NCBI GenBank assembly: GCA_963713925.1
Contig: OY970212.1
Location: 1,212,274-1,276,273 of the forward strand
Direction of reading: 5' to 3'
Origin: an uncultured bacterium
GTDB lineage: Bacteria; Babelota; Babeliae; Babelales; Vermiphilaceae
Length of the DNA stretch: 64,000 nt
The position numbers and the translations under genes are program-made. The notes below the pieces were generated by a model. That model did not search any database, was not told the origin of the DNA, and saw only the letters and a list, made by a program, of their open reading frames with translations. Numbering within the stretch: the stretch's first letter is position 1; each line of letters begins with the position of its first letter. Below are positions 5,087 through 56,295 of the stretch, piece by piece.

Positions 5087-5165
5087 TTGGGCCCCAAATT
5101 GTAACGAATGTGGAATTTGGGTAAAAGAATGAAGCGAAACAACGACTTGAAAGCAGTTGAGCGCT

Positions 5166-7132: not shown

Positions 7133-7732
7133 ATGATGTTAAAAAATAAATACATAGCCATAGTATTACTGCTCACATCCGTAGTCTCGCACGCGAAAGA
7201 TATCATCCTCGAAGTCAAGGGCGCAGGATTTATACCTTCAAACAAAATCTATAAAAAGATCTACGGAAACTCCGGAATATTTGGTTTGGAGGGAACATTC
7301 AATCTCGGTTGTGATTACTTATATGGGTTTATAAGTCTTGATTTTGTACACAAAAAAGGAAAATCAATCGGATTGTGTAACCCTACCAAAATTAATTTAT
7401 TTGAACTTGGCTTAGGATTAAAATGCCTTGTTCCCTTTTGTGATGCCGGTGACGCATACTTCGGCCTTGGAATACTTCCTACTCATGTTAAAACAAATGA
7501 TTGCTCACCATTTGTCATACCCGTAAACAAAAAATGGACAGTCGGCGGAATAGCAAAGTTTGGCGTGCTCTTTAATATCGGCTGTAATTTCATTTTAGAC
7601 TTATTTGTCGATTATGCCTTTGTACGAGCACGATTTTGCTGCTCACAATCTAAAACAGGATTTGTCGAACCACGCACGGCTCATTTGAATGCCACAATAA
7701 TCGGTGGAGGGTTGGGATATCGATTCAATTGA
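7133..7732 (+). CDS. small outer-membrane beta-barrel protein
   Basis: Signal peptide MMLKNKYIAIVLLLTSVVSHA. Alternating-hydrophobicity strands throughout. C-terminal GGGLGYRFN has the aromatic near the terminus typical of OMP barrels. Confidence 0.6.
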   Translation: MMLKNKYIAIVLLLTSVVSHAKDIILEVKGAGFIPSNKIYKKIYGNSGIFGLEGTFNLGCDYLYGFISLDFVHKKGKSIGLCNPTKINLFELGLGLKCLVPFCDAGDAYFGLGILPTHVKTNDCSPFVIPVNKKWTVGGIAKFGVLFNIGCNFILDLFVDYAFVRARFCCSQSKTGFVEPRTAHLNATIIGGGLGYRFN

Positions 7733-7758
7733 TCAATATTGTAGAACTCACTTAAAGA

Positions 7759-7786
7759 GAAAGGCCTCGCAATCGCGAGGCCTTTC
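7759..7786 (+). terminator. Rho-independent terminator
   Basis: 12-bp stem GAAAGGCCTCGC-AATC-GCGAGGCCTTTC followed by TTATATT. Confidence 0.75.
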
Positions 7787-7807
7787 TTATATTAGATCTA
7801 TAAAGAA

Positions 7808-7891
7808 GTTCGAATGGTTCGACTTCGCTCACCGCGAACGGAAGAGGGCCCCCATGCGCAAGCATGGGTAAAAACGGAGAGCAGATTTTTT
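7808..7891 (+). repeat. family-1 modular hairpin repeat, single arm
   Basis: GTTCGAATGGTTCGAC-TTCG-CTCACCGCGAACGG-...-GGGCCCCCATGCGCAAGCATGGGTAAAAACGGAGAGCAGATTTTTT. Its reverse complement recurs at 15370-15461 and 40621-40711. Confidence 0.85.
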
Positions 7892-7922
7892 CGTTTTTTC
7901 AGTTTCACAATAAGTCTATTCT

Positions 7923-12375: not shown

Positions 12376-12805
12376 ATACCCATTCGAATTCTTCGACTAA
12401 CGCTTATACCCCAATTTTTTACCCATACTTCGCGAGCTTCGTATGGGCCCAGTTTCGCTTACGCTGCATTGGGGACCCCGAAACCACGAACGGGCCCCGC
12501 GCGTGAGCGTGGGTGAAAACGGGCTTTGTGCCTTTGAGTAGATTAATTTTTTTATTTTTTTGCGTTCGTGGGGTCCCCGATCGTAACGTCAGTGTAGATT
12601 GGGGTTATCATGGTGAGCGTAGCATAATTTTGGGGTCCCCGATGAAGGGTCCCATGCGTAAGTGCAACGTAAGCATGGGTAAATGGAGCGTAAGCGAAAT
12701 TGGGCCCCATACGAAGTTTGCGAAGTATGGGTAAAAATTGGGGCAATAGCGAAATCATGGGCCCCATGCGTAAGCAATGGGTGAAAATCGAACCATACGA
12801 ACTAA
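12376..12805. repeat. dense patch of degenerate family-1 hairpin modules
   Basis: At least six consecutive hairpin units. Examples: ACCCATACTTCG..CGAAGTATGGGCCC, GGGTCCCATGCGTAAG..AAGCATGGGTAAA, GGGCCCCATACGAAG..CGAAGTATGGGTAAAAA and GGGCCCCATGCGTAAGCAATGGGTGAAAATCGAACCATACGAAC. There is also a GTCCCCGATCGTAACG..GTGTAGATTGGGGTTA unit, as at 19785-19815. Confidence 0.8.
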
Positions 12806-12949
12806 GATCAACAGGCTAGTTAGATCCTTAATCGCTATTCTTGTCTTCAGGCAATATATCAATTACAATTGCACTACATTGCATCAATTCTAAAAATCAC
12901 GTGATCCATCACAACTGTTGACTTCATCAAACCTACAACGGGGAACCGA

Positions 12950-15100: not shown

Positions 15101-15369
15101 GTTGTTACGATCATCCTCGGAAATGATTTTTTTGCCGTCGAGTCCCAAAACAAGCGCATGTAGTTCTGGGTTATACAATGTCCCTAAATGAACAATACAT
15201 CAAGTATTGTTCACCCCCCTAACCCTTCAGCATTTATTGTTGAAGGGATTTTTCTTATACCCCAGTTCCATTTTCTTCGAAGTTTAGCAGAATGTGTCAT
15301 TACACTGGGGGCCCCGCATAACAAAACAAAAATCGGAATTACTTTAGACTTCAGAAATTAAAAAAAAGA

Positions 15370-15461
15370 AAAAATCTGCTCTCCGTTTTTACCCATGCTT
15401 TCGCATGGGGCCCTCTTCCGTTCATGGTGAGCGGAGTGAAACGAAGTCGAACCATTCGAAC
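15370..15461 (-). repeat. family-1 modular hairpin repeat, single arm
   Basis: AAAAAATCTGCTCTCCGTTTTTACCCATGCTTTCGCATGGGGCCC...GGTGAGCGGAGTGAAACGAAGTCGAACCATTCGAAC. This is the reverse complement of the 7808-7891 copy. Confidence 0.85.
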
Positions 15462-15480
15462 TTTTTTTTATTTATACGCG

Positions 15481-18395: not shown

Positions 18396-19640
18396 ATGGA
18401 TTACAAACAATTTCCGGCTGGTCCGGGGGTCTATTTCTTCAAAACTGCAGAAGATATTATTATTTATGTTGGCAAGGCTACTTCCCTGCGAGAGCGGGTG
18501 CGTTCCTATTTCCAAAAGACTGACGATTGGAAGGTCAATTCCTTGATTGCCGAACATGCCTCCATCGACTTCATAGCCACCCTGACCGAGACTGAAGCAA
18601 GCATTCTGGAAGCTCAGCTTATTGCCAAATACCAGCCAAAATTCAATGTCTTGCTCAAAGATGGCCAGCCCTTTTTATATATTTTGTTTACCCAAGGGGC
18701 ATTGCCTGAGATGAAGCTTGTTCGTAACAAGAAAGCTAAGGGTAAATATTTCGGCCCATTTATTCAAAAAAGACCCGTTCGTGGTATGTTTGCCTTCTTG
18801 AAACACACGTTTAAACTCGATTTGTGTAACGTTAAAATGCAAAATGGATGCCTCCGATTTCATTTAGGCACCTGCGCCGGAAACTGCAAACCTGATTTTA
18901 ATCTTTCTGATTATCAGTTCAGACTTACCTTGGCAATGGCAGCATTATCAAATAACCAAGAAGAATTTAGAAGCTTAATTGATGAGCAAATCAAGCGCTA
19001 TACCAATTCGATGGAATTTGAAAAGGCGCGAACCATTCATGCGTATCAAACTGACGTGGAAAAAATATTCTATGCGATTAATGTGCGATACTCTGAAAAA
19101 AAATATGAACATGAGGTGATTCGAGTCACGGCACCACAAGAGCTTAAAAAAGATTTGTCATCAGTCGGGCGTGAACTTGCCCAGCTTTTACATCTGCCGC
19201 AAGAAATCCGCACCATAGATTGTTTTGATATCTCCCATTTTCAAAGTCAGTCGATTGTCGGCTCATGCGTTCGATTCACCGATGGAAAACCCGATAAAAA
19301 TAAGTTCAGGCGTTTTAAAATTCGTTCACTCGAAGAACAAAATGATTATGCTGCATTGCAAGAAATTGTGGCCCGACGATATAAGTCACTAGATGATATT
19401 CCTGATTTTGTATTGATCGATGGCGGTAAAGGACAATTAAATGCGGTAAAAGATTTAGTTCCAGCACGATTTGTCAGCTTGGCAAAACGAGAAGAGCGCT
19501 TATACCAACCGGGTGATCCGGATGGAATTAAGCTTGACGTGCACACTGGCATTGGAAGTCTTTTAATTGCGCTGCGTGACTATGCGCACCACTTTGCCAT
19601 TAGTTATCATAGAATGCGTCAAAGTAAAGCTTTGAAATAA
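18396..19640 (+). CDS. uvrC: excinuclease ABC subunit C, short form lacking the C-terminal (HhH)2 domain
   Basis: GIY-YIG block (GVYFFKTAEDIIIYVGKATSLRERVRSYF). UVR-like helix (MEFEKARTIHAYQ). Endonuclease-V-like block (IDCFDISHFQSQSIVGSCV...NDYAALQEIVARRY...LIDGGKGQLNA). The ORF stops at 414 aa. Confidence 0.8.
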   Translation: MDYKQFPAGPGVYFFKTAEDIIIYVGKATSLRERVRSYFQKTDDWKVNSLIAEHASIDFIATLTETEASILEAQLIAKYQPKFNVLLKDGQPFLYILFTQGALPEMKLVRNKKAKGKYFGPFIQKRPVRGMFAFLKHTFKLDLCNVKMQNGCLRFHLGTCAGNCKPDFNLSDYQFRLTLAMAALSNNQEEFRSLIDEQIKRYTNSMEFEKARTIHAYQTDVEKIFYAINVRYSEKKYEHEVIRVTAPQELKKDLSSVGRELAQLLHLPQEIRTIDCFDISHFQSQSIVGSCVRFTDGKPDKNKFRRFKIRSLEEQNDYAALQEIVARRYKSLDDIPDFVLIDGGKGQLNAVKDLVPARFVSLAKREERLYQPGDPDGIKLDVHTGIGSLLIALRDYAHHFAISYHRMRQSKALK

Positions 19641-19659
19641 AAAAATCCCCATATTTTGT

Positions 19660-27893: not shown

Positions 27894-29495
27894 ATGAAGC
27901 CACATACCCCTCTTGCACTTGTTATCCTCGACGGATTCGGCATTGCCGAACCCAATCCAGGCAATGCGGTAACCAGTGCAAAAACTCCCACTTTAGATCA
28001 ATTGATGAAAAACTATCCTCACACGCAGCTGAAAGCAAGCGGCAGCGCAGTGGGACTGCCTGATGGAGTTGTTGGCAACTCCGAAGTTGGACATATGACC
28101 ATTGGCACAGGACAGATCATTAAACAGGCGTTGACGATTATTAACGATGCAATCGCCGACGGATCCTTTTTTACCAATGAGCGGCTCATGCGTCCACTCA
28201 AACAGCTTGCGCTCAGTGGCAAGACTTCGCATATTATCGGTCTTTTGTCTGATGCCGGTGTACATGGAACCATGAATCATTTGATTGCCTATGCTCAGGC
28301 TGCTGAAAGTGCCGGCGTAAAAAAGATTGTCATTCATCCCATTTTAGATGGTCGAGATGTTCCACCCAAAAGCGCTGCACACTATTTGACCGATCTTGAA
28401 AAAGAATTGCAGAATATCCCTCATGCTCATATTGGAACTCTCAGTGGTAGATTTTATGCAATGGACCGCAATCGCAACTGGGATCGCACCTGCAAAACAT
28501 ATGAAGCACTAAAAACCCCAAATCTTTACCCAAATTTCACTCTGTTCCATTTGGGACCCGAACACAGTATGAGGGGGGTAAGTTCGTGGCAAAAAACTCT
28601 TGATGCCTGGTATGCCACTGGTGAAAGTGAAGAATTTCTTCCACCGATCACACTATCCCATTTTGTCATTGAATCGGGTGATGGTGTAATTCTGGCAAAC
28701 TTTCGCCCCGAGCGCATGCGGCAGCTTTATGACCTTTTGACTGGACAAGCGCCAACAAATTGCGCACAACCGACTGTTAACCTTTCTTTCTGCCTGACAG
28801 CCGTCAAATATACGGACTCAGATACTTCTGCATTGTTTGAAATTGAAAAACCATCCGTGCTTCACTTGTCCGGGCGTTCAGCTCGGCAAGTTACGCAGGA
28901 CAGGACAACCCTCAAGCAGGAATTAAGCAAAGCAGGTTATTCGATCTTCTCAATTGCGGAAACTGAAAAATACGCACATGTCACCTATTTTTTTGATGCG
29001 GGAAACGATAAACCATACCCTCATGAGCAACAGATATTAATTCCTTCAATAAAAGCGCGAACATACATTGATTATCCGTGCATGTCTGCCCCTGAAATCA
29101 CGCAGGCTGTGATTCATTCACTTGAAAACAACCCGGCCGATTTTTATTTGATTAACTATGCAAATGGAGACATGGTTGGCCATTCAGGCTCATTGCCCGC
29201 AGCAATCAAAGCAGTCGAATGTTTGGATAAGCAAATAGGAGATTTGTATCGTGAATTTGTGCAAAAAAGAAATGGCGTCTTAATTATCACTGCCGATCAT
29301 GGCAATGTCGAAAAGATGATCGATGAACATGGCAATCCTGACACTGCACATACGACAAATGATGTTCCATTCATTATTGTGAGTAAAAACAGCAAACAAT
29401 ATTCGCTTGATGGTTTGCATGGACTTTCCGATATTGCACCATTTATTTTGCATATGTTAGACCTAACAACTCCAAAGATAATGCAAAGGACCTGA
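27894..29495 (+). CDS. gpmI: 2,3-bisphosphoglycerate-independent phosphoglycerate mutase, with two repeat-derived in-frame segments
   Basis: iPGM blocks LVILDGFGI, GNSEVGHMTIGTG, ILDGRDVPP, FYAMDRNRNWDR, IAETEKYAHVTYFFDAG, MVGHSG and ADHGN. Segments at 28527-28559 and 28853-28904 match intergenic repeat families. Confidence 0.95.
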   Translation: MKPHTPLALVILDGFGIAEPNPGNAVTSAKTPTLDQLMKNYPHTQLKASGSAVGLPDGVVGNSEVGHMTIGTGQIIKQALTIINDAIADGSFFTNERLMRPLKQLALSGKTSHIIGLLSDAGVHGTMNHLIAYAQAAESAGVKKIVIHPILDGRDVPPKSAAHYLTDLEKELQNIPHAHIGTLSGRFYAMDRNRNWDRTCKTYEALKTPNLYPNFTLFHLGPEHSMRGVSSWQKTLDAWYATGESEEFLPPITLSHFVIESGDGVILANFRPERMRQLYDLLTGQAPTNCAQPTVNLSFCLTAVKYTDSDTSALFEIEKPSVLHLSGRSARQVTQDRTTLKQELSKAGYSIFSIAETEKYAHVTYFFDAGNDKPYPHEQQILIPSIKARTYIDYPCMSAPEITQAVIHSLENNPADFYLINYANGDMVGHSGSLPAAIKAVECLDKQIGDLYREFVQKRNGVLIITADHGNVEKMIDEHGNPDTAHTTNDVPFIIVSKNSKQYSLDGLHGLSDIAPFILHMLDLTTPKIMQRT

Positions 29496-30856: not shown

Positions 30857-31603
30857 TCACCTCTTATAGCGCACCTTATACAATAATAAACCTTGTGCCG
30901 GAGCATTTATAAGTTCTTGACGAGCATTTTTTTCTTCGAATGCTTGCATGATCAGTTCTGACGAACGCTTCTTTGAAATCGCAATGCTCATTGCCGCTCC
31001 CACCATACGACGAATCATGTGTCGCATAAACGTATGCCCGACAACGGTAACTCGGTATACATCATACCGACGAAAATAATGCATATCAATGGATTGAATA
31101 GTTCGCACTGTATCTTCTCGCTGATCATCTTGGCAGCGAAATGAAGCAAAATCATGTGTTCCGACAAATAAATGCAGTGAGTCTCGCAGCTTCTGTTCAT
31201 CAACATCGTGCCGCACGTGCCAGCCATAGGGAGCCATCATGGGCAACGGTCTGTTTTGGAAAAAATGATACTGATATATTTTTTGAGTCACATCATCGTA
31301 CAAATCAAAATCATCGGAAGCAATCTCAGCAGAGCGAATTAAAATGTCTGCAGGCAGACGATTGTTGAGCGCAAATTTGAGTCGCTCAGGATCAACGATA
31401 ATTTCAGTCTTGAGGAGAGCAACTTGCCCAAGCGCGTGCACACCCGCATCAGTGCGCGAGACACCTTTTACTTTACACGGAGTTGAAAAGATTTTTTCAA
31501 ATGTTTTGGAAATTTCAGATGAAACGGATGGCAGGCTTGTTTGTGCCTGCCATCCAAAATAGTGTGTGCCCGAGTAGGCTATGAGAAGTTTGTAGTGAAA
31601 CAT
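30857..31603 (-). CDS. truA: tRNA pseudouridine(38-40) synthase
   Basis: IAYSGTHYFGWQAQ and the catalytic block SRTDAGVHALGQV. Confidence 0.9.
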   Translation of the reverse strand: MFHYKLLIAYSGTHYFGWQAQTSLPSVSSEISKTFEKIFSTPCKVKGVSRTDAGVHALGQVALLKTEIIVDPERLKFALNNRLPADILIRSAEIASDDFDLYDDVTQKIYQYHFFQNRPLPMMAPYGWHVRHDVDEQKLRDSLHLFVGTHDFASFRCQDDQREDTVRTIQSIDMHYFRRYDVYRVTVVGHTFMRHMIRRMVGAAMSIAISKKRSSELIMQAFEEKNARQELINAPAQGLLLYKVRYKR

Positions 31604-35122: not shown

Positions 35123-35221
35123 AATCGTTTCCTTTACCCAATTTCTTACCCAAATTTCGCTTAAGCTTCATTTGGGGCCCTATTTTTCAATTTAGGCTTG
35201 GGACCAAAATCTATAATAAAT

Positions 35222-38888: not shown

Positions 38889-40595
38889 ATGATGAAAACA
38901 GTTGGTGATATTTTAGTTGATATGGGTATAATCACCCCCGCCGCGCTTATCGATGCCCAATCGAAAGCACAAAGCGCGCAGCAACGACTTGAAAAGTATC
39001 TATTAGATAAAAAATTAATAACGCAAGCGCAACTAGCTCAAGCATATGCAAAGTATTCAGGATGGGAATACATAGAAAAAATTACCGATTTGATGACCGA
39101 TCTTGATCTGCTTGCAAAAGTCCCGCTGAAATTTTTAAGAGATAATGCAATCATGCCACTGAGCATTGATGGCAAGCTCGTGCTCGTGGCGGCAGATCCG
39201 ATTAAGTATCAACCGCTTGATGAACTTAATATGTTGCTCGGCGGTGGCGCGCGGTATGCCATTGGACCCGAGAATGTGGTGATTGACGCCATCAACAGAT
39301 ATTATCCGCTTGAAGGCGCAAAACAGGTTATTGCCGAACTTGAGGAAGAGGAAGAGGTTTTACCCGATGTTGAACTTTCTCACATTGAAGAAAAAGATAT
39401 CACCTCAATGGCAGCAGAAGCTCCTATTATTAAGCTCGTTAACAGCATTTTGTATCAAGCTGCAAAGCGCGGGGCATCAGATATTCACGTTGAACCATTT
39501 GAAAAAGAATTGAGCGTGCGTTATCGCATCGACGGAGTCATGTACACCGTTATGACACCGCCAAAACGCTTACAAGGAGCGCTCATTTCTCGCATAAAAA
39601 TTATGGCCAATCTTAATATCGCCGAAAAACGCCTTCCGCAAGACGGTCGTATCGATTTAAAAGTGGCGGGCAAAGCGATTGATATTCGTGTGTCTGTGTT
39701 GCCGGTTGCTTTTGGGGAACGCGTTGTTATGCGTTTACTTGATAAATCACGCAGCTTTGCAAAATTGGCAGACATTGACTTCAGCGAGCGCGATTACAAA
39801 GTCATGGAAGAAAGCATTTCAAAACCAAACGGTATTATTTACATCACCGGGCCAACAGGTTCGGGTAAAACAACCACCTTGTATTCAATTTTGGGTGAAC
39901 TTAACAAACCGGAAGTGAACATCATAACTGTCGAAGATCCGGTTGAATATCAAATGGCCGGCATTGGGCAAGTACAAGTGCGTGAAAAGGTGGGGCTTAC
40001 TTTTGCCGCCGCATTGCGCTCCATTTTGCGACAAGACCCTGATATCATCATGATTGGGGAAACGCGTGATCAAGAAACTGCCCAAATTGCTATTCAATCC
40101 GCGCTGACCGGACACTTAGTGCTCAGCACCTTACACACCAACAGCGCTCCCGCCACCATCACTCGATTAATCGACATGGGAGTTGAACCATTTTTAATAG
40201 CATCTTCGATTCACTTGGCAATGGCTCAGCGTTTGGTTAGAAAATTGTGTCCCAACTGTAAAAAAGTATATACGCCTTCTGAGCAATTGCTCAACAGCAT
40301 CGGACTTTCAAAAAAAGACGCACAATCAATCACTTTTTATGAAGCAATTGGGTGTGATGAATGTTCTCAAACAGGATATCGCGGTCGCCTTGCGCTCTTT
40401 GAACTTATGTCGATGACGCCAGGCATTGCTCGACTCACCATGGAACGTGCTGACACTGCTCAATTGCGTCGACAAGCACAATCTGATGGCATGACACTTC
40501 TTGTTCAAGATGGTCTGAGAAAGATTAAGCAAGGGCTTACAACTATCGAGGAAGTCTTGTCTGTCGCTACTATTGAGCAAGAGGTCGTGGAGTAG
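38889..40595 (+). CDS. gspE: type II secretion / type IV pilus assembly ATPase (GspE/PilB family)
   Basis: N-terminal T2SSE_N-like domain. Walker A GPTGSGKTTT, Walker B IIMIGETRD, His box TGHLVLSTLHTN. Tetracysteine CPNCK...CDECSQTGYRGR. Confidence 0.9.
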   Translation: MMKTVGDILVDMGIITPAALIDAQSKAQSAQQRLEKYLLDKKLITQAQLAQAYAKYSGWEYIEKITDLMTDLDLLAKVPLKFLRDNAIMPLSIDGKLVLVAADPIKYQPLDELNMLLGGGARYAIGPENVVIDAINRYYPLEGAKQVIAELEEEEEVLPDVELSHIEEKDITSMAAEAPIIKLVNSILYQAAKRGASDIHVEPFEKELSVRYRIDGVMYTVMTPPKRLQGALISRIKIMANLNIAEKRLPQDGRIDLKVAGKAIDIRVSVLPVAFGERVVMRLLDKSRSFAKLADIDFSERDYKVMEESISKPNGIIYITGPTGSGKTTTLYSILGELNKPEVNIITVEDPVEYQMAGIGQVQVREKVGLTFAAALRSILRQDPDIIMIGETRDQETAQIAIQSALTGHLVLSTLHTNSAPATITRLIDMGVEPFLIASSIHLAMAQRLVRKLCPNCKKVYTPSEQLLNSIGLSKKDAQSITFYEAIGCDECSQTGYRGRLALFELMSMTPGIARLTMERADTAQLRRQAQSDGMTLLVQDGLRKIKQGLTTIEEVLSVATIEQEVVE

Positions 40596-40620
40596 AACCT
40601 ATCGCAAAGCTAAAAAAAAG

Positions 40621-40852
40621 AAAAAATCTGCTCTCCGTTTTACCCATGCTTTCGCATGGGGCACTCGCTGTTCGTGGTGAGCGAAACGTAGTGCAGTCGA
40701 ACCATACGAACAAAAAAATATGCATATGGGATAGCGGGTAATGAAAAATTTTGCAAAAAAGACACAAACAAAAAAGTTCGAATGGTTCGACTACGTTGCA
40801 TTTTTTCCCATGCTTTACGCATGGGGCCCGCAACTTCGCTCACCACGAACGG
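40621..40852. mobile_element. family-1 MITE-like inverted pair between gspE and the pseudopilin gene
   Basis: Left arm at 40621-40711 (AAAAAATCTGCTCTCCG...GTCGAACCATACGAAC). Right arm at 40776-40852 (GTTCGAATGGTTCGAC...CTCACCACGAACGG). The 64-nt centre is reverse-complement homologous to the centre of the 62458-62609 copy. Confidence 0.8.
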
Positions 40853-40866
40853 CTGGAGATTGTTTT

Positions 40867-41394
40867 ATGCCTACGATAAAAATTCAATGGAGCCTAGATC
40901 GCCTACGCCCCAGTAAATCCGGATTTACACTCGTGGAACTCATGGTTGTGATTACTGTTGTCTGTGTGATAGCAGGCTTAGGCATACTACAGTCTTCTTC
41001 ATTTGCACACATCACAGCACGTTCTGAGTTGTATAAACTACATGCCGTTTGCCGCTATCTACAATCGCTCGCTCGCACAACCGGCCATACGCAGCAGTTA
41101 GTCTTCACATGCAACGGATATCAATTTGATGGACAGGAAACAACATTTGCCTCAGGTGTTTCAATTGGATGTAAACCGGGAATATATGGCCCTCCCGGAA
41201 AGCCGACGCATGCAGTCAACGGCCCCTGCAGTTTTGCTCATAACCGAATTGATTTTCATCCTCATGGCATTATAAGCTCAGGCGTGGTATACATCAAAGG
41301 ATGTGATGGTAGACAATATGCACTCAGCAACAGTGTTTCAGATATTTCTTACCTAAGAAATTATGAATATGCTGATGGTTGGCGCCAAATATAA
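40867..41394 (+). CDS. prepilin-type pseudopilin (GspH/FimT-like)
   Basis: Class III signal ...RPSKSG/FTLVELMVVITVV with Gly at -1, Phe at +1 and Glu at +5. Start set at ATG 40867. The track ORF from 40741 translates the MITE. Confidence 0.8.
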   Translation: MPTIKIQWSLDRLRPSKSGFTLVELMVVITVVCVIAGLGILQSSSFAHITARSELYKLHAVCRYLQSLARTTGHTQQLVFTCNGYQFDGQETTFASGVSIGCKPGIYGPPGKPTHAVNGPCSFAHNRIDFHPHGIISSGVVYIKGCDGRQYALSNSVSDISYLRNYEYADGWRQI

Positions 41395-41428
41395 AACCCC
41401 ATGTGAACCGGGGGAACCTCCAAATATA

Positions 41429-41575
41429 AGAGCTTATACGAAAAATTAAGCTCTCTACCTAAAAAAGGGTTGGTTGTCATGCTGAACTTGTTTCAGCATC
41501 CAGGTTAAATAGATCCTGAAATAAATTCAGGATGACATAACAATAAGGAATTTCCGGTATTTTCTGATAAGCTCT
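41429..41575 (+). mobile_element. family-2 147-bp TIR-bounded element (copy 2), upstream of tamB
   Basis: AGAGCTTATACGAAAA ... TTTTCTGATAAGCTCT inverted termini. The 64-nt core is identical to copy 1. It ends 7 nt before the tamB ATG. Confidence 0.85.
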
Positions 41576-44306: not shown

Positions 44307-45152
44307 ATGAAGCATATGGTAGTAGTAATACTGTGCGCGTTATCGACAATAACGCCCGCAACATGGTGTATATATAACAAAACTCATTTTGTTATTGACC
44401 AGTCAGGAAATCCGGTAAAAGATGCTCAGTTGTCCCAGGGTTTGGATTCAATTGAACGCCCTCGAGAAAAAAAGAACAGTTCATATCGCGTCTTTTTCAG
44501 CCCAAATGATGATGTGCGCGCCCGCCTGATCGATTTGATCAATCACGAAAAGAAATCTATTAAAGTTTCTATTTTTATGTTCACCGATAAGGATATCGCA
44601 CATGCGCTCATTAGTGCGGCGCAACGGAATGTTCAAGTGGCTGTCATTGTTGATGGAGCAGCGAGCGCTGATCGATTTAGTAAAATTGAAATGCTCAAGC
44701 GTTCCGGCATTGATGTTTTTGAATATAAACCGCAAGCCCCAACCGGTATCAACAATGATATCATGCATCACAAATTTGTAATTTTTGGATCAAATCAAGA
44801 TGATTGCTCATTGCTCTGGACAGGATCATGTAATTTCACACGATCTGCATCAGTGCGTAATCGAGAAAATGTTATCGTACTTGATGATACGGGTGTAATA
44901 GAACAATTTGAGCAAGAATTTGAGCGTCTGAAGCAAATAATTAAAAAATCATCATCCATGCTTCACTTGTCCGGGCGGTCTTACCCAAGTTCCGTTTCAC
45001 TACACTTGGGGCCCAAACTTCAGCTCGGCCCTGTGCGCCATAGCTCCTACGAGCGGCGGCGTAAAGTTACGCAGGACAGGCAAGCTACACGACAAGTTCG
45101 AAAGGCAAGCAGGATAACCAAGCGATATATCAGAAATAATGAAATATGTTGA
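44307..45152 (+). CDS. secreted single-HKD phospholipase D-family protein (Nuc-like), with repeat-derived C-terminal extension
   Basis: Signal peptide. IKVSIFMFTDKDIAHALISAAQRNVQVAVIVD. HKD motif MHHKFVIFG...GSCNFTRSA. The last ~65 codons (from about 44954) are a family repeat copy translated in frame. Confidence 0.8.
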   Translation: MKHMVVVILCALSTITPATWCIYNKTHFVIDQSGNPVKDAQLSQGLDSIERPREKKNSSYRVFFSPNDDVRARLIDLINHEKKSIKVSIFMFTDKDIAHALISAAQRNVQVAVIVDGAASADRFSKIEMLKRSGIDVFEYKPQAPTGINNDIMHHKFVIFGSNQDDCSLLWTGSCNFTRSASVRNRENVIVLDDTGVIEQFEQEFERLKQIIKKSSSMLHLSGRSYPSSVSLHLGPKLQLGPVRHSSYERRRKVTQDRQATRQVRKASRITKRYIRNNEIC

Positions 45153-45801: not shown

Positions 45802-46089
45802 AACATCCTCCTGATTTTTACCCAAATTCCGTTTTCAACTTCATTTGGGACCCCACAAAATTGGATTTGGGGGTTATTTATTGGGAAAACCTCCATTTCC
45901 CCTGTCCCTGCATCTTCATTTTTTATGGTAGCATATTAAGAATGGTAAATTCAATAAAAAGTGCGTAAAAATAAGGCTTTTTTATTCTTTAGATATTAAC
46001 AGTCAAATTTCAAATACAGAAAAAAGCAACTCAAACTCTTGCGTTTGAAATTGCTTTTTTGCTATAATGCAAGCAATTAAGGAGTTGGC

Positions 46090-50391: not shown

Positions 50392-51501
50392 ATGAGACAT
50401 CCATTTTGGATTTTGAATTCAGTGCTCGTTTTTTTGATCGCCCTGTTGGCCGGCTACCTCTATCTGAGCTATCAAACTCCTCTAGAGCGCACAGAAATAG
50501 AAGCTGCGCCGGTTCGTCCTGTATCTAAAAAAAGTGAACAAAAAATAATCATCGAACGTATTTACGAAAATGATATTTTCGGCACAACGCCGCGCAAAGT
50601 GATCAAAGAAGAATCCGCTGCCGAACTCGTACAAAAAATGCCCGAACCACCACGTCCCGTGAAAGAGGAAGCTCCTCCGGAGGCAGAAGTCACTTTTCTT
50701 GATCCATTACCTATAAAATTAAGGGGGATCATGACTTTTGCTCTTGATGACTCGAAAAATAGAGCCGTTATTGAAGCGAGCGCAGGCAATGAGGCATTAT
50801 TCCGCGTTGGCGATATGATTGAAGATGCCCAATTGCTCAGAATTTTTGCAAATAAAATTATCATCATCCGCTCAAACGGTCAGCAAGAAGTTCTCTACCT
50901 GAGAGAAAAAGATGCATTGCTCGATCCAACATACGCAAACGCGCTCGGCTGGAACGATGTCGTGAAACAAATTTCACCTTCTGAGTTTTCAATTAATGTA
51001 TCAGCATTTACGACTCGAGTAACAAATATCAGTCAGCTCCTTGATATGCTTGATATCACGACCATTTACCAAAAAGGTGAAAACTTTGGCTGCCGCATCG
51101 GATCTATTGATGAACATTCTCTGGGTGCTTCGCTTGGGTTTATCAGGGGAGATATTATTACATCAGTCAACGATATTCCCGCTACAAGCACCGCGCAACG
51201 ATTCAAGATCTACAAAACCGTTGTCGGGCTAAACCCTGAAGAAAAAATTGTCATGAAGTTCTTGCGCAGATCACAAGGAAGCTGGAAAGAAATGGAATTC
51301 ACGTACACATTGCAAGAAGTGCGCAAAAAAGCACAAAAACCAAGAACATTTGAACCAACAGAAAACGAAAAGAAACAACGAGAGATCGTTGCAAAAAAAC
51401 ATACCTTAGCTCCAACCATTTCTGATATTCGAAATAGAGAACGTCAGAACATGAAAGAACAAGGGAAAAAACCAACCTCATTAATCACTCCTCAGTCATG
51501 A
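50392..51501 (+). CDS. GspC/PilP-like inner-membrane protein with PDZ domain
   Basis: N-terminal TM helix. HR-like beta block (NRAVIEASAGNEALFRVGDMIEDAQLLRIFANKIIIIRSNGQQEVLYL). PDZ-like block (GASLGFIRGDIITSVNDIP). First gene of the secretin operon. Confidence 0.65.
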   Translation: MRHPFWILNSVLVFLIALLAGYLYLSYQTPLERTEIEAAPVRPVSKKSEQKIIIERIYENDIFGTTPRKVIKEESAAELVQKMPEPPRPVKEEAPPEAEVTFLDPLPIKLRGIMTFALDDSKNRAVIEASAGNEALFRVGDMIEDAQLLRIFANKIIIIRSNGQQEVLYLREKDALLDPTYANALGWNDVVKQISPSEFSINVSAFTTRVTNISQLLDMLDITTIYQKGENFGCRIGSIDEHSLGASLGFIRGDIITSVNDIPATSTAQRFKIYKTVVGLNPEEKIVMKFLRRSQGSWKEMEFTYTLQEVRKKAQKPRTFEPTENEKKQREIVAKKHTLAPTISDIRNRERQNMKEQGKKPTSLITPQS

Positions 51502-51508
51502 GAACAGT

Positions 51509-54100
51509 ATGAAAAAAAAGAATATACCATACATCACCGGCGTTCTGCTCGCGCTGAGTTGTTTTATGACTCTCAGCACATGGCCGCATAATAAACGCGC
51601 TCGCGCCCGAAATGTTATCATGGCTTCAGCAGAAGATGCGGTAGCGCAGGTTGAACATGATGTCGCTACCCATGTTGAAGTGGTCGACCTGGCTGCAGAT
51701 ACTCAGGTAACTGAGCAACGGAAAAAAGAAGATCAAAAGATCGTCGATCTTGATAATAAAAATGAACCGATTGCAAAAGCGCGCGAGGAAAGTGCTGATG
51801 AATTTAAAGCAATTGAACCTCAAGAAAATCCTCAACTGAAAGAATCTGTTGATTTCGAAGATCTTGAACGTGAAAATGCCGAATCTCAAGAAGATTTAAT
51901 AGAATTCAATTTTGAAAACGCAAGTTTGGAACAGCTTATTTCATATGTTGCGGATGTTTTTGATTATCAATTCATCACTCCCGATGCTGTTGATCCGGTG
52001 GCCAAAGATGAGAAAAAAATTAAAGGAAACTTGATATCATTCAAAACGCAAAAGCCTCTCTCCAAGCCTGAAGTATGGAACCTCTTTCTCACGTTCATTG
52101 ATATGTCCGGCTTTGCCGTTGTGCCTTTTAATGATGAACCGAAAATTTTCAGAATTGTCACAAAAGATCCCGGAGCAGGACCTATCACTCGCGCACCAGT
52201 TCCTACCTTTATCGGCGTTGACCCAACAGAAATTCCAACAGCCGTTGCTTCAAGCGATCAAGTGATCCGTTACATCTATTTTATTAAAAATAGCACCACT
52301 GACGCATTTATCGGAGGCACCGGTAATCCGCGCATCTTAGATCAAATTAAAAGTCCCCAATCAACGATTTTAGCTCTCAAAGAGCATAACGCGCTTCTTA
52401 TTATCGATAAAGCGTTCAACATTTTCAATTTGATGAAGATCGTCAAAGAGCTTGATAAGGTGAGCTTGCCGCAAGCGATGTCCGTATTGAAACTTCGCAA
52501 AGCTGATGCTATTGAGGTTAAAAATCTGTATGAAAGCTTGATCAAACCGGACGAAAAAACCCCCATGCCTAATCGGTTGTTACAACGCAAACAACCGACT
52601 GCTGCCTATTTTCCTGAAAATGTAAAAATTATTGCTGAACCCCGTACCAATTCTCTTATCTTGCTTGGTCCAATCGATACCATTAAAAAGATTGAAGATT
52701 TTATTGTGGAACACGTAGACGTTTCTATGGAGAAGCCCTTTTCTCCGCTGTATGTCTACGATGTAAAATATGCGAATGCTGAAACAATTGCTCGCATCAT
52801 GAATGAGACTACTAAATTTGGAGAAACCTGGGATGAAGCCTCAAAAACGGCTCGTGCCGTGGGGGCTGTTCGCGGAGGCATTGATCAATATTTCAAACCG
52901 ATGCGCTTTGTAGCCGAGATGGCAACTAATAGAATTATTATCAAGGGAAACTATGATGATTATATTAAGGCCGTTGACATTATTAAGCAACTTGATGAAC
53001 CGCAACCGCAAGTTGCCGTTGAAATTTTAGTGATACAACTGAGCTTGGAAGAACTCAAAATTTTAGGGACTCAAATGAGATCCAAAGAGCCGTGTGGAAC
53101 GAATGGAATTTTCGGAAAAAACATTACGTATCAAACATCCGGAAGCTTCACCGGATCCAGCAACACAGCTCAAGGATTACAATTGCAGACTCCAAGTAGT
53201 ACCGGCACGAGCTCTCCTGCCGGCGCCACACAACTGCTGGGTAACTTGCTCAACTTGGTGACTACTGCCGGAGCCGGAAATACCGTTGTTTCTTTGGGCG
53301 ATGCTTTGGGAGCGTGGGCAGTCATTCAAGCGCTTGAAAGCCTCACTTCGACACAATTGGTCGCTAACCCTTTCTTAATTGCGACTAATAAAACAAAATC
53401 AAAAGTATCGGTCACTACGATTGAACGTGTGATTGACTCACAAATCTTACAAACCGGTAGCAGTACTTCAAACACCTTCAAGGACGAAGAAGCAGGGCTT
53501 AATGTGTACGTTGAACCTCAAATTTCTTCCGATGGTATGATTACTCTGAACATAGCCGTAGAATCATCCCAATTCGTGGGTGCTGTTTTTAACCCTGCCT
53601 TTGTGCAAAAAATCGTTCGGGGCCTGCAAACAAAAACGGTTGTTGCCGACAAAGAGGTCATTGCGCTCGGAGGCATTATCCAATCAACCGCGACTGACAA
53701 TGCAAACAAAGTGCCTCTTTTGGCAGATATTCCTTTATTGGGTTGGTTTTTCAAAAATAAATCTAACGACGTTGTGCGTGATGTGCTTTTGATTTTAGTT
53801 GCAACGCAGCTCATACCTGCAGAAAAAGACAGTGAGCGTATTGAAACCTTTAACAAACGTCGCATGAATCAATATGAAGAGATTCTTGCCGATACGTATG
53901 ACAATGCGGCATCGCGTGATCCGATTAATAAGTTTTTCTTTGAAAACAACTATGGCGGTCCGCGCGAGCTTTATGAAGAATATATGTTGGATCCACGGGA
54001 TCATCCGGCTCGCAGCGGCGCACGAAGAAGAAAACGTTTTGACCAAAAGCAAGAAGCAACCACTACCGCTGAAAATGAACTGAGAGGAGTTGCTTCATGA
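51509..54100 (+). CDS. secretin (GspD/PilQ family), copy A
   Basis: N0-like start of the periplasmic domains (IEFNFENASLEQLISYVADVF). C-terminal secretin signature VIALGGIIQSTATDNANKVPLLADIPLLGWFFKNKSN...LLILVATQLI. Confidence 0.85.
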   Translation: MKKKNIPYITGVLLALSCFMTLSTWPHNKRARARNVIMASAEDAVAQVEHDVATHVEVVDLAADTQVTEQRKKEDQKIVDLDNKNEPIAKAREESADEFKAIEPQENPQLKESVDFEDLERENAESQEDLIEFNFENASLEQLISYVADVFDYQFITPDAVDPVAKDEKKIKGNLISFKTQKPLSKPEVWNLFLTFIDMSGFAVVPFNDEPKIFRIVTKDPGAGPITRAPVPTFIGVDPTEIPTAVASSDQVIRYIYFIKNSTTDAFIGGTGNPRILDQIKSPQSTILALKEHNALLIIDKAFNIFNLMKIVKELDKVSLPQAMSVLKLRKADAIEVKNLYESLIKPDEKTPMPNRLLQRKQPTAAYFPENVKIIAEPRTNSLILLGPIDTIKKIEDFIVEHVDVSMEKPFSPLYVYDVKYANAETIARIMNETTKFGETWDEASKTARAVGAVRGGIDQYFKPMRFVAEMATNRIIIKGNYDDYIKAVDIIKQLDEPQPQVAVEILVIQLSLEELKILGTQMRSKEPCGTNGIFGKNITYQTSGSFTGSSNTAQGLQLQTPSSTGTSSPAGATQLLGNLLNLVTTAGAGNTVVSLGDALGAWAVIQALESLTSTQLVANPFLIATNKTKSKVSVTTIERVIDSQILQTGSSTSNTFKDEEAGLNVYVEPQISSDGMITLNIAVESSQFVGAVFNPAFVQKIVRGLQTKTVVADKEVIALGGIIQSTATDNANKVPLLADIPLLGWFFKNKSNDVVRDVLLILVATQLIPAEKDSERIETFNKRRMNQYEEILADTYDNAASRDPINKFFFENNYGGPRELYEEYMLDPRDHPARSGARRRKRFDQKQEATTTAENELRGVAS

Positions 54101-55728
54101 TTCGCGATATTTTCATCCCAAATCGTATCGGTTCCTATTACCTCTTTCCGCAACGGATCGTCGGCATCGATATACAACCGCATGCGATCTATGCGACTGT
54201 GCTCTATTTGTATAAACGTATCATCGCTATTGAAAAGCAATTGAGTCGACCGGTTGCGGAAAACAGCGCACCAGAGCAAACAGCACAGGTGCTTAAAGAG
54301 CTCTTTGAATCGATAGGCTCATATGATTATGTCGCGACGGTATTGCCAAGTTCATATGCGGTATTTAAAACAATCACTCTGCCTTTCACCAACAAAGAGA
54401 AGATCGGCATGGTGATTGGATACGAGCTGGAGCCCGGATTGCCCTTTGCGCTTTCCGATGCAGCAATCGGATTTATCACAACCGCTGTTGATGAACAAGA
54501 ACAATCAACGGAAGTTGTTGCAGTTGCTATCAAAAAAGAGTATCTGCAAGCACATAAAACGATTTTCGAACTCGCCGGCATCACACCGGAACTTGTATCT
54601 ATCGATAGCTTGGTAAATTTCGAAATAATAAAAAGCACCGCTACGTTCAAGCAACGCAGTTCGCAACCAGTTGCGCTTATTAACATCAAAGATGCTGAGA
54701 CAGAAGTAAGCTATATCTTGAATGGTGCACTGAAACTGATCCGAACACTTCCGACAGGGATGTACGATATTCTCAAGGGAGTTGCACAAAAAACAGGTTC
54801 TTCCATCGCAAAAGTAAAAACACTCATTGATCAGTATGGAGTGCTCAATAATCCTGATCACACCTTTGATGCGGCAATTAAGGAATCATGTAATAGCTTG
54901 ATTCAATCAATTGCATTCACGTGCAATACCTTCAGTCAACGAGTCAATTTTCCACCGATACAATCAAGCCTTCTTGTCGGTGCAGCCACGCAACTCAAGG
55001 AGATGGAAACGCTTATATCACAAAAATTAAGCACTCCGTGCACTTCCATACCTACTGCAGAATTGATGGGCGCGCAAGATGTATCACTTAAACCATCGCA
55101 AGAGTATTTGTCCAGTTTCGCAGTTGCACACGCCTTTGCAAATGCACGCAATGCCAATATTGCGACACAAGAATCGACTCAACGAGATTTATCACTCGTT
55201 ACCAAACAAATTATAACAGTGGGCATTCTTTCCTTGCTCTTAGTAGCAACTGTTGGCGTCAGCACCTTTATGCAACTGAGACATTGGAATGCCGAATATA
55301 ATAGCTCATTGGAGCAAGCTATTCAAGAACTCAAATCAATTCCGGGCGCAACCGCAGCCCCTGGGCAGGAGGAAGAGGGTGAAGCTCCTTCAGAATCCCT
55401 TGAATCATACATTGCACGAGCTAAAACACTGGTTGCGCAACGCAAAAATCTTGTCGATCAATTTTCTCCGGCTCATAAACGATCAATGCTTGAATACCTC
55501 TTGGAGCTTTCAAAATTAGATAGAGACGAGCTTGGTCTGAACATGGAGCGATTAACGCTTACTCCACAAAAAATGGTTATCAAGGGGCGTGTCAAAGGAC
55601 CTAATGAAATTGCCATAGTAAGAAACGTAATTGAAGGTTCTCATTTGTTTGGACAATATACTCCATCACATGGTCTTTCAAATCCTGAATTTAGTGCGAC
55701 CATCACTCTAACATCAAAGAGGCCATAG
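54097..55728 (+). CDS. GspL-like / PilM-PilN fusion-like assembly protein
   Basis: The actin-fold N-terminal domain begins IVGIDIQPHAIYATVL. One TM helix (IITVGILSLLLVATVGVSTFM). Periplasmic C-terminal domain. The start overlaps the secretin stop (ATGA). Confidence 0.65.
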   Translation: MIRDIFIPNRIGSYYLFPQRIVGIDIQPHAIYATVLYLYKRIIAIEKQLSRPVAENSAPEQTAQVLKELFESIGSYDYVATVLPSSYAVFKTITLPFTNKEKIGMVIGYELEPGLPFALSDAAIGFITTAVDEQEQSTEVVAVAIKKEYLQAHKTIFELAGITPELVSIDSLVNFEIIKSTATFKQRSSQPVALINIKDAETEVSYILNGALKLIRTLPTGMYDILKGVAQKTGSSIAKVKTLIDQYGVLNNPDHTFDAAIKESCNSLIQSIAFTCNTFSQRVNFPPIQSSLLVGAATQLKEMETLISQKLSTPCTSIPTAELMGAQDVSLKPSQEYLSSFAVAHAFANARNANIATQESTQRDLSLVTKQIITVGILSLLLVATVGVSTFMQLRHWNAEYNSSLEQAIQELKSIPGATAAPGQEEEGEAPSESLESYIARAKTLVAQRKNLVDQFSPAHKRSMLEYLLELSKLDRDELGLNMERLTLTPQKMVIKGRVKGPNEIAIVRNVIEGSHLFGQYTPSHGLSNPEFSATITLTSKRP

Positions 55729-55729
55729 C

Positions 55730-56275
55730 ATGAATATCTTTAAACGCCTCCAGGAATATTTCGATTCACTCGATTACACCGGATTTTTGAAAGTTATCGG
55801 CATATATGCCTCGATACTTACACTCATTGTTGGTGGGCTTTTGTATTGGAAATCATATAAAATGGAAATCCTGACTGAATCTCTCGATGATTTAAATAGT
55901 AAACGAGAAGAAATCAAAAAATTGCTCACCTCCTATAAAGCATTAGAGCAAGAGCAAAAAAATGTTGATTCAATCATTACCAAAGACCCTGATTTTAATT
56001 TGGCGGCCTATTTTGAAAATTTGTTGCAAAGTTTCAAGGTTAAGCAATCGAAAAAAGTGGCTATCATCAGTCGCGCTACCAAAGCCAACAACTATATTGA
56101 AGAAATAGCAAGTGCCGACCTGGTTGAAATAGATATGAAAACGTTAACGGAAATTATCCAAGAGCTTGACAGCAATAATAGAATCACCATTCAAAAATTG
56201 GACATTACCAAAACAATGGCCACGACCGTCAATGTCAGCATTGATGTAGCAACATTGCTCAAAAAGAGCGCATAA
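55730..56275 (+). CDS. GspM/PilO-like bitopic membrane protein
   Basis: TM helix, coiled coil, then a ferredoxin-like pattern (IEEIASADLVEIDMKTLTEIIQELDSNNRITIQKLDI). Starts 2 nt after the upstream stop. Confidence 0.55.
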   Translation: MNIFKRLQEYFDSLDYTGFLKVIGIYASILTLIVGGLLYWKSYKMEILTESLDDLNSKREEIKKLLTSYKALEQEQKNVDSIITKDPDFNLAAYFENLLQSFKVKQSKKVAIISRATKANNYIEEIASADLVEIDMKTLTEIIQELDSNNRITIQKLDITKTMATTVNVSIDVATLLKKSA

Positions 56276-56295
56276 AAAACTAAGGAATTATACTT

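Follow-up and report, generated by a model that had tools for sequence, protein, structure and literature searches.

An in-frame palindromic repeat at the second hinge of a phosphoglycerate mutase in a Dependentiae-like bacterium

Introduction

The in-frame insertion of small structured repeats into bacterial genes, by repetitive extragenic palindromic (REP) sequences, Rickettsia palindromic elements (RPEs) and transposable elements of the miniature inverted-repeat kind (MITEs), is an established phenomenon (PMC10969869, PMC3733652, PMC5896051). Here, we describe a 64-kb stretch of DNA from an uncultured bacterium (contig OY970212.1, positions 1,212,274 to 1,276,273), which we call the window. 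It contains gpmI, a gene predicted to encode 2,3-bisphosphoglycerate-independent phosphoglycerate mutase (iPGM). A short repeat that we call element A is located within gpmI and occurs again, as a longer copy, toward the 3' end of a gene predicted to encode a NucT/PLD-like nuclease. The original prediction for this locus, made from the sequence alone, was that a mobile palindromic element contributes extra peptide to a glycolytic enzyme in the manner of RPEs. This raises the question of what kind of element this is and how the enzyme accommodates it. We found that element A is read in frame at the second inter-domain hinge of an otherwise intact iPGM. It is probably a selfish palindromic hairpin repeat of the REP/RPE type that is tolerated at this site as a disordered loop.

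Results

The gpmI product is an intact iPGM with 17 extra residues at hinge 2

The open reading frame (ORF) of gpmI matches TIGR01307 with 506 bits and iPGMs from the PDB with an E-value of 1e-107. Alignment of 120 homologues showed that its product keeps 50 of the 50 invariant columns and nearly all near-invariant positions. Residues 321-337 (SVLHLSGRSARQVTQDR), encoded by nt 28854-28904, have no counterpart in the 119 closest homologues, of which 27 were compared first. They are also missing from the iPGMs in the PDB from Geobacillus, Bacillus, Staphylococcus, Acinetobacter, C. elegans, and a trypanosomatid. Taking out these 17 codons exactly leaves a linker of normal length. An extra in-frame peptide of about 17 residues had been predicted in gpmI, and this is what the alignment shows: the segment is found in 0 of the 119 closest iPGMs and in 0 solved structures, and the enzyme is otherwise intact.

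The AlphaFold2 model of the gpmI product has a mean predicted local distance difference test (pLDDT) score of 87.7. Values below 50 are confined to residues 219-228, within the first of the two insertions in this protein, and residues 321-335, within the second. Outside these segments, the model superposes on the closed, substrate-bound iPGM structures 1EJJ/1O98, with template modeling scores of 0.83-0.84 when normalized to the query and 0.87-0.88 when normalized to the target. The second insertion follows the last strand of the phosphotransferase domain (residues 312-315) and precedes the first helix (residues 340-346) after the chain returns to the phosphatase domain. The domains of iPGM are joined by two hinge peptides (PMC5382265, PMC8113725), and the element A insert is at the second of these. 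By an approximate mapping, the hinge-2 residues of the C. elegans enzyme align to the C-terminal edge of the insert. In the model, the 17 extra residues are predicted to form a basic, disordered surface loop.

Element A occurs again in the PLD-like gene

Within the window, the 18-mer GCTTCACTTGTCCGGGCG occurs exactly at 28859 and 44960 only, and the 17-mer AAGTTACGCAGGACAGG occurs exactly at 28888 and 45064 only. These counts were reached in 0 of 100 dinucleotide-preserving shuffles. Alignment of the two copies showed that the 128-nt copy in the PLD-like gene is the 53-nt gpmI copy with two added blocks of 41 nt and 34 nt, between which a decamer of element A is retained (Table 1). When the added blocks are taken out, 51 of 53 positions are identical. 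Because the arm counts exceed those of the shuffles and the un-nested copies are this similar, the repeat is real and far above chance. Thus, the predicted similarity of the gpmI segment to a longer copy at 44954-45080 holds under a proper alignment, with arms that match exactly.

Both copies in the window are intragenic, and gpmI and the PLD-like gene translate both arms of element A in the same frame (S[V/M]LHLSGRS ... VTQDR). Neither 41 nt nor 34 nt is a multiple of three, but the two blocks sum to 75 nt and both arms therefore keep the frame. The PLDc_2 domain extends to residue 208 of the 281-residue nuclease, and the first residue from element A is 216. Since it starts past the end of this domain, element A is part of a 66-residue C-terminal extension. 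A role of this copy as a terminator was rejected because the plus strand has neither a T-run nor a terminator-like call.

We considered whether an assembly or consensus artefact copied the repeat into gpmI. The gpmI protein is not on record in the gene-position index, which would fit such an artefact. However, an independent Logan assembly (L023, run ERR11523654) agrees with the PLD copy at every base, and the frame is kept exactly in the gpmI copy. The gpmI copy is also not a collapsed duplicate because 2 of its 53 bases are different in the PLD copy and the nested blocks are missing from it. We regard an artefact as hardly credible.

Element A is predicted to form one long hairpin

The dominant pairing of the short copy is TCC.TGC...ACTTG.CCGGGC-loop-GCTCGGCAAGT...GCAGGA, spanning 28854-28900. 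It is comprised of a stem of TCC.TGC with GCAGGA followed by a stem of ACTTG.CCGGGC with GCTCGG.CAAGT, and the loop is GTTCA. Using RNAfold, we obtained -23.1 kcal/mol for the plus strand (z -4.59), with 0 of 200 shuffles equally stable, and -21.9 kcal/mol for the minus strand (z -4.69). Of all 56-nt windows in the 64 kb, only ~0.5% rank as high as this hairpin. The G+C content of element A is 57% with its codon flanks and 60% for 28852-28904, compared with 41% for the window. The ends of the element had been described as imperfectly inverted (TTGTCCGGGCG/CGCAGGACAG). Its palindromic nature stands, but the main pairing is not between these ends and the element is instead one long hairpin of 47 nt. 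No Rfam family matched the element at either gathering or E-value thresholds.

The three plus-strand frames of the short copy are all open and the three minus-strand frames each contain a stop codon. Intragenic survival is therefore possible for sense-oriented insertions only.

A hairpin at this site could have been exapted. The 17 residues might tune the dynamics of hinge 2 or mediate an interaction, or the mRNA hairpin might act in cis, for instance in RNase processing or as a translational pause between the two domains that aids co-translational folding. The site is a functionally important inter-domain hinge (PMC5382265, PMC8113725), the window genome is alone among the 120 closest iPGMs in having an insert at hinge 2, and the hairpin, at -23 kcal/mol, has an unusual stability for coding sequence and coincides exactly with a domain boundary. 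By contrast, the same sequence occurs in the dispensable C-terminal tail of an unrelated gene, the peptide is predicted to be disordered, and there is no conservation evidence, the insert being known from a single genome. Di Nocera et al. took the diversity of REP-decorated proteins to argue against functional constraint (PMC3733652). We consider exaptation quite unlikely.

Other hairpin repeats of the window are found within gpmI and within element A

The first gpmI insertion belongs to a family, which we call family B, that also includes the 41-nt block within element A's long copy. Family B has the pattern TTACCCAnnn-loop-nnnTGGGRCCC and at least 10 copies in the window, 7 of them intergenic. 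The flanks ACCCA and TGGGRCC are constant, whereas the stems co-vary among copies (CCCAAAT/ATTTGGG, CCCATGC/GCATGGG, CCCATAC/GTATGGG, CCCAAGT/ACTTGGG). No further copy of the 34-nt nested block was seen in the window. A second palindromic family, family C (GTTCGTGGTGAGCG...GTCGAACCATWCGAAC), occurs in both orientations in intergenic clusters where it is interspersed with family B. These mosaic clusters resemble the bacterial interspersed mosaic elements (BIMEs) of enterobacteria.

The window contains other structured or repeated sequences. A repeat of ~148 nt with two hairpins, CATGCTGAACTTGTTTCAGCATC and ATCCTGAAATAAATTCAGGAT, is present at 19941-20089 and 41428-41575 (86% identical). One copy is immediately upstream of clpB (20045) and the other of tamB (41583), and the repeat may be a common 5' regulatory element or a further mobile element. 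A very stable hairpin of -28 kcal/mol at 31525-31580 (CGGATGGCAGGC...GCCTGCCATCC) is inside the truA ORF, at its 5' end as annotated. Just upstream of gpmI are two paralogous small ORFs (26258-26638 and 27463-27870) with the common motif GVDVGWYP...DW.NP.Y and no Pfam match. The regions 38889-41394 and 50392-59229 contain genes for a type II secretion system/type IV pilus-type ATPase, pilin-like, GspC-like, and PilM-like proteins, and two large secretins. The part of the second secretin gene encoding the C-terminus (near 58947-59118) contains short direct repeats and a hairpin of -25.6 kcal/mol.

The host is related to Dependentiae, and close relatives have no gpmI at this locus

Judged by its homologues, the host is a Dependentiae-like bacterium. 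The closest gpmI homologues are only 49-56% identical and the named ones are from Dependentiae or Babeliales. BipA is 84-88% identical to proteins of several uncultured relatives and 86% identical to a cluster that holds MCL5874867.1 from 'Candidatus Dependentiae bacterium'. A further Logan run contains a protein with at least 90% identity to this BipA (P0242). The gene order gpmI-GNAT-TruA-BipA-S6 is common to other Dependentiae contigs. The GC content of ~41% and the REP-rich spacers had prompted the idea that the repeats are QMITEs of Coxiella. This was ruled out by the gpmI and BipA homologues and by the synteny, which point to Dependentiae, and it is also disfavored by the report on QMITEs, which has no mid-gene insertions in functional genes (PMC5896051).

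For the two closest relatives whose flanks were usable (BipA 85-86% identical), tblastn found no trace of gpmI in the slot between the GNAT gene and the gene for an RsmE-type methyltransferase. Small unrelated ORFs are present there instead (L033:13108-14500 and L034:13211-13939). From the sequences at this slot, gpmI appears to have been lost from, or moved out of, the syntenic locus in the sister lineage. Because these loci are without gpmI, the essentiality of the enzyme is an assumption. On a 617-kb contig of another genome, bipA is present as three consecutive ORFs (L024:16653-18455), which is due to either pseudogenisation or assembly frameshift errors.

These observations bear on whether gpmI is under relaxed selection and heading toward a pseudogene, with the insertions as early decay. 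Two independent insertions in one gene and the lack of gpmI in the slot of the closest relatives would fit this, as would the reduced metabolism of Dependentiae. However, the 533-aa ORF is intact, the invariant positions are all kept, the fold model is confident, and both insertions are in frame and in loops. Moreover, an enolase gene is present in the same window, and the gpmI of the relatives may be located elsewhere in their genomes. Early decay of gpmI is very unlikely.

Palindromic inserts are found in other Dependentiae gpmI genes

Inserts of 8 residues or more are found internally in 9 of the 120 closest iPGMs, including the one encoded in the window (P0001), and fall in three recurrent loops. 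Those of the 8 other iPGMs are lineage-specific. We read the insert DNA for 7 of the 8 other gpmI genes, which provided 8 insert segments, and added the two insertions of the window for a total of 10. The insert segments are GC-enriched. The best 60-nt folding z was -2.9 or lower in 7 of the 10 segments versus 1.4% of 361 non-insert windows from the same genes. The segments that did not reach this value are the first insertion of the window (best z -2.24) and two ortholog segments.

One of these inserts is a 124-nt palindrome with z = -7.6 (L027) and two are repeated elsewhere within their own loci (L028 and L031). The inserts of two different genomes (L024 and L028) belong to one palindromic family, characterized by the motif CTCAGGGCGAGCGG. 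They occupy different positions in gpmI and have opposite orientations. In L028, this family is also found between truA and bipA and overlapping the 5' end of truA. Because the inserts are GC-rich and mostly either strongly palindromic or repeated nearby, in-frame palindromic inserts look recurrent in Dependentiae gpmI, as seen in one gene from a handful of genomes.

We could demonstrate no homology of element A to the inserts in the 7 other Dependentiae gpmI genes. One of these (L030:6146-6199), a hairpin that ends in GGAGGACAGGCAA and encodes ...ELRRTG, has a weak likeness to the 3' half of element A in another frame (KLRRT). It was rejected as a homologue, since 9 of 500 shuffles scored as well and this is not significant after 7 tests.

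Table 1. Coordinates of element A, the genes that contain it, and other hairpin repeats. Positions refer to the window unless a locus of another genome (L024, L028) is named; strand is given in brackets where it differs among copies.
Feature	Position	Strand	Description
gpmI ORF	27894..29495	+	533 aa, iPGM with two in-frame repeat insertions (TIGR01307, PDB)
Element A, short copy	28852-28904	+	Shared similarity; reads CATCCGTGCTTCACTTGTCCGGGCGTTCAGCTCGGCAAGTTACGCAGGACAGG
Element A, short copy in codon register	28854..28904	+	51 nt; encodes the 17 extra residues (321-337)
Imperfect palindrome forming the body of element A	28854..28900		47 nt (RNAfold)
First gpmI insertion	28517..28563	+	Family B hairpin CCCAAATC-TTTACCCAAAT...ATTTGGGACCC; insert relative to homologues
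NucT/PLD-like nuclease ORF	44307..45152	+	281 aa, last ~66 residues an element-derived or read-through tail (PLDc_2)
Element A, long copy	44953..45080	+	128 nt; arms at 44953-44980 (left) and 45064-45080 (right), with TCAGCTCGGC between them at 45020-45029
Nested block 1	44981..45021	+	41 nt, in loop of element A hairpin; family B hairpin TTACCCAAGT...ACTTGGGGCCC; TC/TC duplication flanks
Nested block 2	45030..45063	+	34 nt; small hairpin rich in GC (GCGCC..GCTC-CTAC-GAGC..GGCG), located in the 3' arm of element A
Family B hairpins	5090-5122(-), 7846-7869(-), 12421-12450, 12648-12680(-), 12703-12732(-), 15391-15413, 28528-28558, 35148-35179, 44983-45013, 45820-45852
Mosaic intergenic clusters	7720-7921, 12401-12790, 15354-15470, 19639-19820, 40590-40901, 59253-59564, 62408-62639		Families B and C
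Motif CTCAGGGCGAGCGG family	L024:10805-10930, L028:8819-8878, L028:12725-12783 and 12887-12928		In frame in gpmI; in L028 also between truA and bipA and at the truA 5' end

Discussion

The results are best accounted for if element A is a short (~51-53 nt), GC-rich, non-coding, non-autonomous selfish palindrome that has landed in at least two genes. In gpmI, it would have inserted in frame and in the sense orientation in hinge 2, where it would be translated as a 17-residue loop. This insertion would persist as one of the few kinds able to pass selection, because its length is a multiple of three, its orientation is stop-free in three frames, and the site is a flexible loop. The other copy would have landed just past the catalytic domain of the PLD-like nuclease, adding to a C-terminal extension, and would later have been struck twice by other small hairpin elements, one of them in the hairpin loop. 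Insertion into a hairpin loop suggests that spread may occur through recognition of hairpin DNA that is extruded or single-stranded. This would require an enzyme that acts in trans from another part of the genome, such as an HUH/RAYT-like or IS110/IS1111-like transposase. We infer the mobility of element A, its mobilizing enzyme, and the neutrality of the 17-residue peptide from these features.

Several observations weigh against such a selfish, spreading repeat. A hairpin covariance model run with filters off found no third copy of element A in the 64-kb window, and there was no transposase or RAYT among the ~54 window ORFs examined with Pfam. No clear target-site duplication was seen at either copy. 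A CA dinucleotide is found on each side of the palindrome in both copies, but a 2-bp duplication does not fit because the gain would then be 49 bases, a number not divisible by three. The layout is also not one of separate short terminal inverted repeats around a body, since the whole of element A is one palindrome. The loci of the closest relatives (48 kb) contained no copy of families A, B, or C. In GTDB representative genomes and JGI metagenomes, collections that do not include the source genome, the exact 18-mer gave chance matches only (8 and 14, each single, in GC-rich genomes, with no likeness past the 18-mer). A search of 5.8 billion proteins with a chimeric six-frame peptide query returned the PLD protein only and missed gpmI, the positive control. 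This search says little, and it cannot see short copies because a match of 17-21 aa scores just 23-31 bits (local phmmer). Finally, nothing in the data shows recent movement or insertion polymorphism of element A. Of the 'mobile palindromic element' first proposed, the palindromic repeat shared with the PLD-like gene is confirmed. Its mobility is not, the evidence being two copies in 64 kb and the nesting within one of them.

The same observations could be explained by a one-off ectopic duplication, through gene conversion, template switching, or templated break repair, of a hairpin patch that is unable to spread. This would account for exactly two copies with no third found by the covariance model, for the lack of a window transposase and of a clear target-site duplication, and for the failure to find element A outside this genome. 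Yet the window is saturated with other multi-copy hairpin families that nest into one another, and the long copy has itself been the target of two further hairpin insertions. Independent palindromic inserts are present in other Dependentiae gpmI genes, some of them repeated in their own loci, and two copies per 64 kb would extrapolate to tens per 1.3 Mb. We think a single duplication unlikely and retain the selfish hairpin repeat as the better explanation.

The insertion of element A in gpmI is in a mechanically important inter-domain hinge rather than in an ordinary surface loop. More tentatively, the Dependentiae (TM6) clade may host several undescribed GC-rich palindromic families that repeatedly colonize protein genes in frame and insert into each other's hairpin loops, a generalization that at present we hold as possible rather than probable. 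It would make the clade an independent second case of the 'selfish DNA in proteins' described in Rickettsia, with the insertion in hinge 2 of iPGM as one visible product, and insertion into each other's loops would imply a spread mechanism that targets hairpins. Were it to apply across the clade, Dependentiae would be a second natural system in which to study how proteins absorb random loop insertions, how elements spread with no visible transposase, and what share of the "lineage-specific loops" of symbionts is repeat-derived. In practical terms, these elements inflate or extend ORFs, as in the tail of the PLD-like protein, and can mislead annotation and alignment-based phylogenomics of lineages dominated by metagenome-assembled genomes. 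We found no literature on MITEs in connection with Dependentiae, and none on palindromic elements in this connection apart from CRISPR.

Element A has features in common with several known systems. Like QMITE1 and QMITE2 of Coxiella burnetii (PMC5896051), it is a small structured repeat of an intracellular bacterium that overlaps ORFs and extends a C-terminus, and the REP hairpin of QMITE2 is an insertion hot spot for IS1111 (PMC5896051), much as the loop of element A contains a nested block. Compared by description only, QMITEs differ in being 150-400 bp long with direct repeats and in having functional-gene copies reported at 3' ends only, and the host here is not Coxiella. Bacterial MITEs such as Correia/NEMIS and ERIC (PMC10969869) are likewise non-autonomous, fold as hairpins, and form in-frame fusions when intragenic. 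However, they have terminal inverted repeats around an internal segment, target-site duplications, and a recognizable insertion sequence origin, none of which is demonstrable for element A.

The REPs and BIMEs of Proteobacteria, in the GTAG and CGTC superfamilies, are also small, G+C-rich imperfect palindromes that can be targets of further insertion and are in some cases within ORFs (PMC3733652). These superfamilies have a high copy number and are mainly extragenic, downstream of ORFs (PMC3733652). By contrast, both known copies of element A are intragenic, neither tetranucleotide is present in 28852-28904 on either strand, including at the ends, and the window contains no RAYT.

In behavior, element A parallels the RPEs, of which RPE-1 to RPE-10 have been distinguished (Ogata et al. 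2000, 2002, as cited in PMC10969869 and PMC3733652). In these accounts they are ~100-150 bp long with dozens of copies, and they have a CGTC tetranucleotide at one end (PMC3733652). As with element A, they are palindromic hairpin repeats in a bacterium of the obligate-intracellular type, inserted in frame and in sense into housekeeping genes that remain intact, with the peptide at the surface or in a loop and with other copies at gene ends. Element A differs from RPEs in being ~51-53 nt long with no CGTC tag, in having two documented copies, and in its Dependentiae host. Neither element peptide had a match at E <= 1 in NCBIfam, which we take to include the TIGRFAM models of RPEs. This agrees with the proposal that an unrelated repeat sequence behaves like an RPE here. 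Distinct in sequence, size, and tag, element A works like an RPE or a GTAG/CGTC REP but belongs to neither. What is new is the repeat family and the phylum, and the RPE-type phenomenon is extended to a different host-dependent phylum and to a very small element.

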